From Candidatus Moraniibacteriota bacterium (GTDB lineage Bacteria; Patescibacteriota; Minisyncoccia; Moranbacterales; UBA1568): DNA of 64,000 bases. The notes under the pieces are model-generated. The model did no database searches. It saw nothing but the letters and a program-made list of their open reading frames with translations, and was not told the origin of the DNA. Below are positions 42,819 to 45,308 of this stretch, in pieces; the first letter of the stretch is position 1; every line of letters begins with the position of its first letter. Made by a program: the position numbers and the translations under genes. The stretch lies in NCBI GenBank assembly GCA_052034975.1, contig JBPOIA010000003.1, positions 49,251-113,250 of the forward strand, written 5' to 3'.

Positions 42819-45308
42819 ATGGAGGGATTTAATCTCAATCTTATTTTTGTTCCGCTTGCGTGGGTGGCCGGTTTGGCGGCGCTTGGAAGCGGAGCCTTTT
42901 TGGTTGTCAGGAGTTTTTTGCGTTTTCGCTACCAGGTAAATCAGTCGCTCAATATGGATCTCGAAGTGATCCAGGTGACGAAAAAGCGTCCAGGGGATAC
43001 TACTCAGGGAGCGGCTTCCGCCGAAGCGTGGAAGGATGAAATTCTGGCGATGGAGCAACTCCTCTCTTCGCTTGCGAACATCAAGCCGAAAAGCGCGTTG
43101 CTTCGAAGTATCTTTCTTGAGCCACCAGGAGTCGTTTTCGAGATTGCCAATCCTTCATCGAGCGAAGAGATCTCATTCTATCTTTCGGTGCCGAAACGGT
43201 ATCGCGAAAGCGTGGAGAAGCAGGTGCACAGTTTCTTTCCGCATGCGGTCATCGAAAAAGTGTCGGACTACACTGTTTTTTCGCCGGAAAGCTTCGTAGC
43301 GGTGTCGACACTCGAATTGAAGGAGAGCTATGCTTTACCGCTCAAAACCTATCGCGGTCTCGGTGTCGATCCGCTCAATGAGATTACGAACGCATTGAGT
43401 AAACTTCAAACGAGGGAAGAGGGGGCAGCCGTCCAGATTCTCCTTTCGCGCGCCAAAGAGGGTTGGCGAACACACGGAAAAGCGATCGCGCGAAAAATGC
43501 AGGAGGGAGTACGGCTTAAAGACGCTCACCATCGTTCAGCGGTCGGCGCGTTTGGCGCGGATCTAGGAAAGAATATGCTCGGGGCATTGGCTGGGAAAAA
43601 GCCGGAGCGGTTTGCGGAAGACAAAAAACCGGTAGCGCTGACGCCGGAAGAGCAAGAAGTACTGAAAGCGATCGATGCGAAAGCGGGAAAAACGGCATTT
43701 TCTGCCAATATTCGTCTAGTTGCATCGGCGGCGAGTCAGGCACGGGCGGAAGAAATCTTGGCTCATATGGAAAACGCATTCGGACAGTTCGAGAATCCGG
43801 ACGTCAATACATTTCGCGTCAAGAAGCGTATGAAGACTCGGCAGGCGGTCTACGATTACATTTTTCGGAATTTCGATGACGAGAGCGCGATGATCCTAAA
43901 CGTGGAAGAATTGGCCGGAGTGTTCCATTTTCCCATCTCGACGACTGAGACGCCGAAGATCAAATGGTTGAAAGCTGGAGCCGCTCCGCCGCCGGTGAAT
44001 ATCCCAGAGGAAGGAATCCTTCTTGGATACAATGATTATCGCGGCGTCAAGACGGATATTCGGATCACAGAGAACGACCGTCGCCGTCATATGTATGTCA
44101 TCGGGCAGACCGGCGTTGGGAAGTCGAATTATTTGCAGGAAATGGCGAAAAAAGATGCCCGGGATGGCCGAGGATTCTGTTTCATCGATCCGCACGGCGA
44201 TGCCATTGAAGATATCTTGACGGCTGTTCCGAAGGAGCGTGCGGACGACGTGATCGTGTTCGATCCGGCCGATATCGTCCGGCCCATCGGTATCAATATG
44301 CTCGAATTCGATCCGGCACACCCAGAACAAAAGACATTCGTCATCAATGAGATGATCGGTATTTTCGACCAGCTCTATGATTTGAAGGCGACCGGCGGAC
44401 CGATGTTCGAACAGTATATGCGCAACGCGATGCTGCTTATTATGGAGGATCCCGAAAGCGGCTCGACACTTCTTGAGATTTCCAAAGTGCTCGCCGATGA
44501 GGAATTCCGCCGCTACAAGCTTTCCAAGTGCACGAACCCGATTGTGCGGGATTTCTGGCTGAAAGAGGCAGAAAAGGCCGGTGGCGAGGCGGCGCTCGCT
44601 AATATGGTGCCGTATATCACCTCCAAGCTCACTACGTTCATCTCGAACGATATGATGCGTCCGATCATTGCCCAGCAGAAAAGCTCGATCAATTTCCGCG
44701 AGATTATGGATCAGGGAAAGATCATCCTCATCAATCTTTCCAAGGGGAAGATTGGCGAGATAAACGCCAAGCTTCTCGGTATGGTGGTGGTAGGAAAGAT
44801 CCTGATGGCGGCGCTTTCGCGTGTTGATATGCCGGAGAACGACCGCCGCGATTTTTATCTGTATCTTGATGAGTTCCAAAATGTGACGACCAACTCCATC
44901 GCGCAGATACTTTCTGAAGCACGCAAGTACCGACTCGTACTCGTTTTAGCGCACCAGTTTATCGGTCAGTTGAAAGAGGAGATTTCCAAGGCGGTTTTCG
45001 GGAATGTCGGATCACTCTGTGTGTTCCGGGTCGGTCCGGAGGACGCGGAATTTCTGGAAAAGCAATTTGCTCCGGTATTTACGGCCAATGATATCGTGAA
45101 TGTCGATAACTATCATCTTTTTGCGCGCTTCCTGATGAACAACGAGTTGACGAAACCGTTCAGTATGAAGACCTATCCGCCGACTACGGGCGATCAGGAA
45201 ATTGCGAACGCTCTCAAAGAGCTCTCGCGATTGCGTTATGGTCGTGATGCCGCGATCGTGAACCGTGAAATTATGGAACGTATCCGTTTGTCGGAGAAGA
45301 AAGGATGA
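42819..45308 (+). CDS. Type IV coupling protein-like ATPase (TrwB/TraD/VirD4 family) with N-terminal membrane anchor and about 380-aa inserted periplasmic/linker region
   Basis: TM LIFVPLAWVAGLAALGSGAFLVV. Walker A YVIGQTGVGKSNY. Downstream DPHGD and VIVFDPADIVRPIGINMLEFDP, as in TrwB/VirD4. Walker B FYLYLDEFQN. YRLVLVLAHQ, FtsK/TraD-like. Confidence 0.75.
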   Translation: MEGFNLNLIFVPLAWVAGLAALGSGAFLVVRSFLRFRYQVNQSLNMDLEVIQVTKKRPGDTTQGAASAEAWKDEILAMEQLLSSLANIKPKSALLRSIFLEPPGVVFEIANPSSSEEISFYLSVPKRYRESVEKQVHSFFPHAVIEKVSDYTVFSPESFVAVSTLELKESYALPLKTYRGLGVDPLNEITNALSKLQTREEGAAVQILLSRAKEGWRTHGKAIARKMQEGVRLKDAHHRSAVGAFGADLGKNMLGALAGKKPERFAEDKKPVALTPEEQEVLKAIDAKAGKTAFSANIRLVASAASQARAEEILAHMENAFGQFENPDVNTFRVKKRMKTRQAVYDYIFRNFDDESAMILNVEELAGVFHFPISTTETPKIKWLKAGAAPPPVNIPEEGILLGYNDYRGVKTDIRITENDRRRHMYVIGQTGVGKSNYLQEMAKKDARDGRGFCFIDPHGDAIEDILTAVPKERADDVIVFDPADIVRPIGINMLEFDPAHPEQKTFVINEMIGIFDQLYDLKATGGPMFEQYMRNAMLLIMEDPESGSTLLEISKVLADEEFRRYKLSKCTNPIVRDFWLKEAEKAGGEAALANMVPYITSKLTTFISNDMMRPIIAQQKSSINFREIMDQGKIILINLSKGKIGEINAKLLGMVVVGKILMAALSRVDMPENDRRDFYLYLDEFQNVTTNSIAQILSEARKYRLVLVLAHQFIGQLKEEISKAVFGNVGSLCVFRVGPEDAEFLEKQFAPVFTANDIVNVDNYHLFARFLMNNELTKPFSMKTYPPTTGDQEIANALKELSRLRYGRDAAIVNREIMERIRLSEKKG

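Follow-up and report, generated by a model that had tools for sequence, protein, structure and literature searches.

A chromosomal ATPase of Patescibacteria with a coupling-protein-type motor and a predicted VirB4-like N-terminal domain

The locus and its ATPase gene

We analysed a stretch of 64,000 nucleotides from the genome of a Candidatus Moraniibacteriota bacterium (contig JBPOIA010000003.1), here called the window, and in it the gene of a motor ATPase. The open reading frame (ORF) at 42819-45308 (+) encodes 829 amino acids, and database protein P0001 is 100% identical to its product. The gene product is a membrane-tethered ATPase of the type IV coupling protein (T4CP) class, which has a folded cytoplasmic N-terminal region resembling the N-terminal domain (NTD) of VirB4. 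The gene is the last one in a same-strand run with gaps of 11-24 nt, in which it follows the genes for a 394-aa protein, an 815-aa protein, a DUF5663 protein and a small protein that we call p136. The features are collected in Table 1.

Table 1. Features of the ATPase gene and of the genes upstream of it (positions within the window)
Feature	Position	Strand	Evidence
Whole gene: transmembrane (TM) anchor, DUF8128 (VirB4-NTD-like) and T4CP-class ATPase	42819..45308	+	ORF, homologues, AlphaFold model
Single N-terminal TM helix, residues 4-30, predicted N-out/C-in	42828..42908	+	Kyte-Doolittle, trailing RSFLRFR
DUF8128 domain, residues ~45-369, alpha/beta, VirB4-NTD-like fold	42951..43925	+	
Variable low-confidence Lys/Ala/Gly-rich loop in DUF8128, residues 241-272	43539..43634	+	pLDDT, alignment
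Extended linker motif from N-domain to motor, residues 364-399	43908..44015	+	conservation
FtsK/HerA-superfamily P-loop motor, T4CP (TrwB/VirD4) class, residues 400-790	44016..45188	+	Pfam, hhalign, Foldseek
Walker A GQTGVGKS, residues 429-436	44103..44126	+	motif, conservation
All-helical insertion between Walker A and B, residues 504-617	44328..44669	+	model, hhalign
Walker B YLYLDE, residues 680-685	44856..44873	+	motif, conservation
Two genes (products of 394 and 815 aa) without recognised domains; system membership uncertain	38408..42055	+	gaps of 15-24 nt
DUF5663 gene, same operon	42080..42385	+	Pfam match, gaps of 11-24 nt
p136, small soluble protein, conserved ~55-aa C-terminal helical domain	42397..42807	+	clustering, hidden Markov model (HMM)

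About 400 residues stand ahead of the ATPase P-loop. An AlphaFold2 model of the full-length protein, calculated from 43 diverse sequences and without templates, has a mean predicted local distance difference test score (pLDDT) of 85.5. The domains mapped on the model are the DUF8128 domain, the linker and the motor with its insert. An earlier note on this DNA had described the protein as a T4CP-like ATPase with a single N-terminal TM helix and an N-terminal architecture unlike that of TrwB/VirD4. All three points were confirmed, the last by the single TM helix and the domain of about 325 residues in front of the motor. The note was also right about the long region preceding Walker A but placed the motif near residue 415, some residues too early.

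The motor domain

Three Pfam families match the window protein above their gathering cut-offs, namely DUF87 (residues 408-501), TrwB_AAD_bind (663-738; 34.4 bits, cut-off 20.5) and TraG-D_C (679-747; 24.6 bits, cut-off 22). With the local Pfam copy all matches are confined to the C-terminal half. When 43 diverse family members are scanned, TrwB_AAD_bind is found in all 43, TraG-D_C in 41, T4SS-DNA_transf in 25, AAA_10 in five and CagE_TrbE_VirB in none. Throughout these 43 homologues the Walker A residues G429, G432, G434 and K435 and the Walker B residues D684 and E685 are invariant. Aligned with hhalign, the family profile matches R388 TrwB with a probability of 96.2% (E 2.3e-9, TrwB residues 115-392), whereas R388 TrwK, a VirB4 protein, is matched with 10.8% over 97 columns. 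Likewise, a phmmer search of 83 orthologues gives matches to 68 of them with TrwB as query and to none with TrwK. The whole protein has sequence matches in the PDB to TrwB and DotL only. In structure comparison with Foldseek the TM-score normalised to TrwB is 0.65, and hhalign aligns the helical insert (residues 504-617 of the model) against TrwB ~187-314, so that it is placed like the all-alpha domain of TrwB.

The NCBIfam matches are all below threshold and are led by TraD, TrbC, VirD4-like, CedD and CedB. The best T4CP score is 33.4 bits against a cut-off of 366 bits (TIGR03743) and the others are lower, which leaves a shortfall of at least 10-fold. The VirB4 profile TIGR00929 reaches 13.7 bits (E 0.014) against a cut-off of 643 bits, and PF03135 matches 0 of the 43 members. 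The protein is no member of the FtsK/SpoIIIE family either, as PF01580 scores 12 bits (E 0.14) against a cut-off of 24 bits and there is a single TM helix. With the motor as tblastn query against 72,556 plasmids we found 308 records of 26-36% identity, with relatives in Streptomyces, Bacillus, haloarchaea and Sulfolobus that are annotated as 'type IV secretion system DNA-binding domain-containing', 'DUF87' or 'TraM recognition domain'. Thus, of the hallmarks of a T4CP the protein has the intact Walker A/B nucleotide-binding domain, the profile similarity and, in the predicted structure, the all-alpha insert. It lacks a two-TM N-terminal membrane domain directly before the motor and an association with relaxase or mating-pair-formation genes. 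Judged by its motifs the motor is catalytically intact, and its sequence places it in the FtsK/HerA superfamily and there in the T4CP (TrwB/VirD4) class. At the C-terminus, where the earlier note saw a resemblance to the substrate-docking tails of TraD-like proteins, strands run to residue 784 and are followed by two helices. The last ~150 residues complete the conserved nucleotide-binding fold, which includes the TraG-D_C match, and add these two helices; they do not form a disordered docking tail of TraD type.

The matches to T4CP families in Pfam and NCBIfam could mean that the gene belongs to an integrated conjugative element and encodes a standard conjugative coupling protein (VirD4/TraD/TraG), the long N-terminus of which is only a lineage-specific linker. 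Relatives, including those on plasmids, also bear the names 'type IV secretion system DNA-binding domain-containing' or 'TraM recognition domain-containing', and TrwB (PDB 1e9r/1e9s) shares with the window protein the Walker A/B motor, the all-helical insertion and the TraG-D_C region. However, TrwB has an N-terminal domain of about 70 residues, two TM helices and no large N-domain, and it is plasmid-borne beside a relaxase. The window protein has one TM helix instead of a two-TM domain, a conserved and folded VirB4-NTD-like domain of ~325 residues instead of a linker, the neighbour p136 and a chromosomal housekeeping context without relaxase. The equivalog cut-offs of NCBIfam are far from being reached, as given above. 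Relaxase, VirB4, VirB6 and pilin genes are absent within 10 kb, here and at 83 related loci, and the syntenic housekeeping flanks, the occurrence in many lineages of the candidate phyla radiation (CPR) at 40-79% identity and the uniform composition are not those of an integrated element. A conjugative coupling protein is in our view very unlikely.

The N-terminal domain

In the AlphaFold models residues 45-369 form an ordered alpha/beta domain of 8-9 strands. Its sole disordered stretch is a loop at about 245-270; around it, residues 241-272 have a pLDDT <55 in both models and unconserved alignment columns. The helix-rich linker that had been proposed for this region is therefore not what the models show. 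With the full model as query, the top Foldseek match is full-length TrwK/VirB4 (~920 colinear columns, E 8e-16); its high root-mean-square deviation results from a differing domain orientation. The runners-up TrwB, Cag-beta and HerA cover the motor only. As in VirB4, a domain of VirB4-NTD fold stands ahead of the ATPase domain in the predicted structure. We conclude from the models that residues ~45-369 fold into a domain like the one at the N-terminus of VirB4. It is followed by the highly conserved linker with the consensus ELA..FHFP....ETP.I.W......PPP.N.P.EG, in which H370 is invariant and P372, P392 and G399 vary little or not at all.

Precomputed database matches assign PF26449 (DUF8128) to P0001 and to all of its best 120 relatives. 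A scan of the N-region in 32 members with a local Pfam copy that lacks PF26449 gave nothing significant, so that the N-domain matches neither PF11130 nor another family of this copy, and a sequence-profile search of the N-region against the PDB was equally without significant result. In the searchable literature we found no papers on PF26449/DUF8128, and on a coupling protein combined with a VirB4 N-terminal domain nothing beyond a 2014 review. Another VirB4-N-terminal-like module that is separable from its motor is TrsD, which forms a split pair with VirB4 in Patescibacteria and in the pGO1-type type IV secretion system (T4SS) (PMC12102498). TrsD matches PF11130 and sits beside VirB3/VirB4 (PMC12102498), whereas DUF8128 has no PF11130 match and is attached to a motor of the T4CP class.

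The two-domain architecture and the N-domain fold shared with TrwK (PDB 7o42/7o43/8rtd) raise the question whether the protein is a divergent true VirB4, the ATPase characteristic of T4SS assembly, with a VirB3-like TM helix attached in the manner of VirB3-VirB4 fusions. The N-terminal TM helix and the small upstream gene, which is sometimes fused to the ATPase gene (see below), also recall VirB3/VirB4. Against this, the motor prefers T4CP profiles in the comparisons listed above (TrwB 96% vs TrwK 11%; CagE_TrbE_VirB 0/43, AAA_10 5/43; TIGR00929 13.7 vs 643 bits), the N-domain has no sequence similarity to that of VirB4, the gene does not lie beside VirB3, VirB6 or VirB8, and p136 has no TM helix. 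A separate VirB3-TrsD-VirB4 cluster moreover exists in the same lineages: Table S3 of a survey of Patescibacteria T4SS lists Moranbacteria and Nomurabacteria genomes with this cluster and two to four 'T4CP' elsewhere (PMC12102498). In haloarchaea, too, a distinct VirB4-like protein of ~1,090 aa is encoded beside the DUF8128 and T4CP-like pair. We regard a true VirB4 as unlikely.

Membrane anchor and topology

A Kyte-Doolittle scan shows one TM-like segment at residues ~4-30, which is the sole peak >1.6 outside the ATPase core. The other hydrophobic peak, at residues 645-672, corresponds to an internal helix of this core. Directly after the TM helix follow the basic residues RSFLRFR, and this positive-inside pattern recurs across diverse homologues. 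The TM helix is found at 51 of 78 homologous loci; about one third of the family members do without it. Because there is a single TM helix, because basic residues follow it and because TM-less members exist, residues 31-400 are predicted to share the compartment of the ATPase, that is, the cytoplasm.

A signal peptide, which the earlier note had considered for the hydrophobic helix, is rejected. A basic n-region is absent, the hydrophobic stretch is about 27 residues long and the basic residues come after and not before it. Since the n-region is lacking, we take the segment to be an anchor. An alignment of the N-region to the membrane/linker region of FtsK-type proteins, the other possibility named there, is not found.

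The hydrophobic helix ahead of residues 31-400 had led to the proposal that this region is an extracytoplasmic part or linker, which might sense or bind something outside the cell. No second hydrophobic segment precedes the ATPase, however, and the positive-inside pattern holds across homologues. Fused variants and stand-alone archaeal homologues without TM helix exist, and the predicted fold is that of the cytoplasmic N-domain of VirB4. We give the extracytoplasmic placement hardly any credence.

The partner protein p136

The p136 gene ends 11 nt upstream of the ATPase start. De novo clustering of the flanking ORFs identified p136 as the most persistent neighbour of the ATPase, present at 24 loci, always at position -1 and on the same strand. 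Its C-terminal domain has the consensus L..A..KGI..AV..A....DPY.LD.FHD.LVD.LY. No Pfam or PDB match was obtained for p136, and its database relatives of 130-145 aa are all 'hypothetical'.

An HMM of the p136 domain matches the N-terminal extension (residues ~85-145) of family members with a length of 905-975 aa. We therefore took a census of TM helix and p136 at the 78 loci with intact ATPase N-termini. A TM helix with a separate upstream p136 gene is present at 27 loci, a TM helix without detected p136 at 24 and a fused p136 without TM helix at another 24, and three loci are odd or truncated. TM helix and fused p136 do not occur together at any of the 78 loci. The fusion of p136 to the ATPase in some lineages argues that the two act together and that p136 is a dedicated partner, in line with the different partner set suspected before. 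The alternation further suggests that p136 can replace the membrane anchor.

At 12 TM-type loci without detectable p136 (L020, L023 and ten others) position -1 is occupied by a different, Lys-rich protein of ~166 aa with a hydrophobic C-terminal segment, which could be an analogous partner. We also noticed that the N-terminus MEGFNLN is common to the window protein and one Nomurabacteria homologue of the fused type. This is not a general feature and we judge it a coincidence.

Split counterparts on plasmids of haloarchaea

When the N-domain was used as tblastn query against plasmids, we retrieved 31 records, almost all of them haloarchaeal megaplasmids plus one Pontibacillus replicon. In every case the matching protein stands alone, is 350-423 aa long and is annotated as a 'hypothetical protein'; the haloarchaeal ones all bear the DUF8128 label. 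In Haladaptatus, Halorussus and Natrinema the gene is part of a conserved cluster that encodes a pilin, three hypothetical proteins (one polytopic), the ~1,090-aa VirB4-like ATPase with AAA_10, P-loop_TraG and DUF87, the DUF8128 protein and a T4CP-like ATPase of ~1,010 aa. The DUF8128 reading frame runs into the beginning of the T4CP-like gene. By hhalign the CPR and haloarchaeal N-domains match with 99.5% (E 1.5e-22), including the motif ELA..H.P....ETP.I.W, which lies at the C-terminus of the stand-alone haloarchaeal proteins, and the motors match with 99.9% (E 8e-37).

The haloarchaeal pair (Halorussus limi NZ_CP096663, Natrinema pNVE500) is thus homologous to the window protein in both halves and has them in the same order, N-domain and then motor. 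It differs in that the halves are two overlapping genes, that a TM helix is lacking and that the genes lie in a plasmid cluster. The haloarchaeal T4CP-like protein carries a C-terminal extension of ~490 aa, and a p136 homologue was not detected. An association with genes of T4SS type is seen only for these split homologues. Since both halves are homologous to adjacent haloarchaeal subunits, the CPR protein equates, on sequence grounds, with two neighbouring subunits of an archaeal or monoderm plasmid T4SS-like module joined into one chain.

The Pontibacillus protein (L087, NZ_CP062975 11845-13116) is a stand-alone DUF8128-like protein of 423 aa on a Firmicute replicon. Its gene lies a few kb from a conjugation cluster with a VirB4-like (CD1110 family) and an Mbov_0395 pilin-like gene, and a 999-aa DUF87 protein is encoded near.

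Distribution and genomic context

A homology search returned >3,800 relatives. The best 120 of them are full-length proteins of 805-841 aa with 71-100% identity from Candidatus Moranbacteria and other Patescibacteria. An exhaustive search with residues 31-400 yielded 1,761 clusters (50% identity level), of which 779 have E <= 1e-10, the full-length matches being 790-970 aa long with the domain at the N-terminus. In GTDB species genomes at least 599 stretches encode relatives of 40-79% identity. The relatives span Moran-, Uhr-, Falkow-, Komeili-, Nomura-, Wolfe-, Taylor-, Zambryski- and Portnoybacteria as well as Paceibacterota. The family is large, conserved, barely studied and, in Patescibacteria, chromosomal; the ATPase is vertically inherited, near-universal and single-copy-like there. 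The architecture was previously called atypical, but it is not rare, being the standard form of a very large family.

Several 'MAG TPA_asm' records (L005-L008, L021-L023, L013-L015 etc.) that contain this Patescibacteria-type gene in Moranbacteria-like synteny go under the names 'uncultured Bdellovibrionales', 'Gammaproteobacteria' or 'Saccharibacteria', labels that seem unreliable.

The survey of T4SS in Patescibacteria counted 5,713 T4CP homologues in 2,918 of 3,035 genomes, of which only 148 lie near virB4 (PMC12102498). It lists about two such homologues for each genome, most of them not close to virB4, leaves their role open and raises a possible exaptation (PMC12102498). The DUF8128-ATPases are probably among these homologues.

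The window is ordinary chromosome of even composition. It encodes SecY, a Mur ligase, an EPSP_synthase-family (MurA-like) protein, GDH, holB, two PMT_2 proteins, RmuC, a MraY-like GT4, PrmC, RF1 and a tRNA cluster. In lineages farther removed, the ATPase gene is flanked by dnaX, ndk, map, adk, cysS and an RNase J-like gene. Neither a paralogue nor a second P-loop translocase is present in the 64-kb window. No VirB4-like gene lies within 10 kb at any of the 83 related loci, and family scans found no membrane subunits of VirB3, VirB6 or VirB8 type among the neighbours. Scans for promoters and terminators remained at background level.

The order of the run (394 aa, 815 aa, DUF5663, p136, ATPase) is kept in Moranbacteria. 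The 394-aa and 815-aa genes are conserved only at Moranbacteria-like loci, and L001 has a single 1093-aa gene instead. DUF5663 is found near the ATPase at 12 loci, including the distant Paceibacterota loci L025 (14181-14501) and L082 (5375-5686), so that its product is a possible accessory with a weak link. Downstream and convergent to the ATPase lies an 818-aa gene (45333-47789, -) with one TM helix at residues 509-537, which neighbours the ATPase at 11 Moranbacteria-like loci only. Apart from the DUF5663 label, the operon partners and the 818-aa protein gave no useful Pfam, NCBIfam or PADLOC matches, and they show no similarity to the other genes of the haloarchaeal cluster.

Two tandem PMT_2 (dolichyl-phosphate-mannose-type) glycosyltransferase genes at 34834-38333 (-) are divergent from the operon, an arrangement that recurs beside the ATPase at the distant loci L035, L038, L040, L043, L051 and L061. 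Farther away in the window are a 533-aa protein with Peptidase_M23 and Golvesin_C (22106-23707, -), possibly a cell-wall hydrolase, and five tRNA genes at 57980-59128 (+), namely Thr(tgt), Tyr(gta), Thr(ggt), Trp(cca) and Glu(ctc). An antisense ORF of 327 aa (43896-44879, -) lies wholly within the ATPase gene; it is unsupported, and we attribute it to composition.

A 201-aa ORF (47953-48558, +), conserved two genes after the ATPase at Moranbacteria-like loci, has a match to PDC-M05A, a candidate defence family of PADLOC (E 3.7e-20). A 248-aa ORF that overlaps it (47860-48606, -) looks spurious. The 201-aa neighbour is one of the observations that would fit a HerA/FtsK-like DNA translocase acting in anti-phage defence (as mad8 of MADS) or in DNA repair and recombination rather than in secretion. 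The ATPase core itself matches PADLOC mad8 (E 2.5e-13), HerA is matched weakly (E >= 4e-4), DUF87 represents the central domain of HerA, and RmuC is encoded two to four genes downstream here and at several distant loci. However, other MADS genes and an adjacent partner of NurA, Sir2 or nuclease type are missing. The N-domain is no HAS-barrel, as HerA would have, and shows the VirB4-NTD fold instead. Near-universal, single-copy-like and vertical conservation is atypical for defence islands, and the nearest relatives outside the CPR belong to T4SS-like plasmid clusters. A role in defence or repair therefore appears quite improbable.

Discussion

We consider it fairly likely that this chromosomal ATPase, made up of a TM anchor, a cytoplasmic VirB4-NTD-like DUF8128 domain and a T4CP motor, works together with p136 in T4SS-like or Ced-like transport. 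We suggest that transport proceeds in the following steps. By analogy with TrwB, the motor would assemble into a ring on the cytoplasmic side of the membrane. The VirB4-like N-domain and p136 could then dock the motor on partner proteins or oligomerise it there. In VirB4 the N-domain dimerises and binds VirB3 and the tails of VirB8 (PMC12857230), and by this analogy the DUF8128 domain is probably a docking or oligomerisation module. ATP hydrolysis could power the import or export of a macromolecular substrate, for which DNA is the most likely candidate. The transport route would be T4SS-like or Ced-like and independent of a relaxase. In other lineages p136 is fused to the N-terminus and stands where the TM helix is otherwise found.

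In architecture, CedD of the crenarchaeal Ced system comes nearest among the proteins that have been studied by experiment. CedD has a TM segment, an N-domain homologous in structure to part of the VirB4 N-domain, and a HerA/VirB4-like ATPase (PMC11868833). In Sulfolobales it is chromosomal, relaxase-independent and needed for DNA import (PMC11868833). The Ced ATPases have been placed in the HerA/VirB4 clade, and the N-domains of CedB and CedD each cover only part of the VirB4 N-domain (PMC11868833). The window protein has weak NCBIfam matches to CedD (E 4e-5) and CedB (E 1.5e-3), which extend over only ~60 residues around Walker A, and NF053655 scores 22.5 bits against a cut-off of 600. Unlike in Ced, the motor scores as a T4CP, and a CedA-like channel gene was not found nearby.

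Several points weigh against the transport function proposed here. The analysis covers sequence and predicted structure. The VirB4-NTD fold was recognised by structure comparison of AlphaFold models only, and hhalign of the N-domain against the N-terminal half of TrwK gives 0.2%, that is, no similarity at the sequence level. Anchoring is not a property of the whole family, as one third of the members and the archaeal homologues have no TM helix. T4SS, pilus, competence and relaxase genes were not found within 10 kb in the window and at the 83 related loci, and the link of the DUF8128-ATPase to the T4SS of Patescibacteria is by analogy only. Finally, in Southlakia epibionticum the T4CP homologue, which may or may not be of the DUF8128 type, is reported to be non-essential while other T4SS genes are essential (PMC12102498).

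With regard to evolution, one may tentatively go further. The DUF8128-ATPases might be a distinct, ancient branch of the VirB4/VirD4 proteins, in which an N-domain of VirB4 type is joined to a motor of VirD4 type. The shared ancestor of the two T4SS ATPases would then have had the N-domain, and canonical coupling proteins would have lost it. In Patescibacteria, together with p136, the branch might have been domesticated as a core module for relaxase-independent translocation of DNA or protein, apart from the canonical T4SS and Ced-like. We regard this extension as possible but doubtful.

The sequence family as such is already catalogued, as DUF8128 and as 'T4CP homologues' in the CPR. In the searchable literature we did not find the structural identity of the N-domain, p136 with its alternation between fusion and TM helix, or the split archaeal counterparts in T4SS-like clusters. 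Our analysis thus provides a structural identity for DUF8128 and flags the unnamed partner family p136 for annotation.

Patescibacteria are tiny and host-dependent. T4SS-like genes are essential in the single genetically tractable model, and relaxases are lacking. In these bacteria a major class of T4CP-like ATPases appears to be not a plain coupling protein but a VirB4-N-domain-like fusion with a dedicated partner, and the DUF8128-ATPases offer one more observation on the divergence of VirB4 and VirD4.

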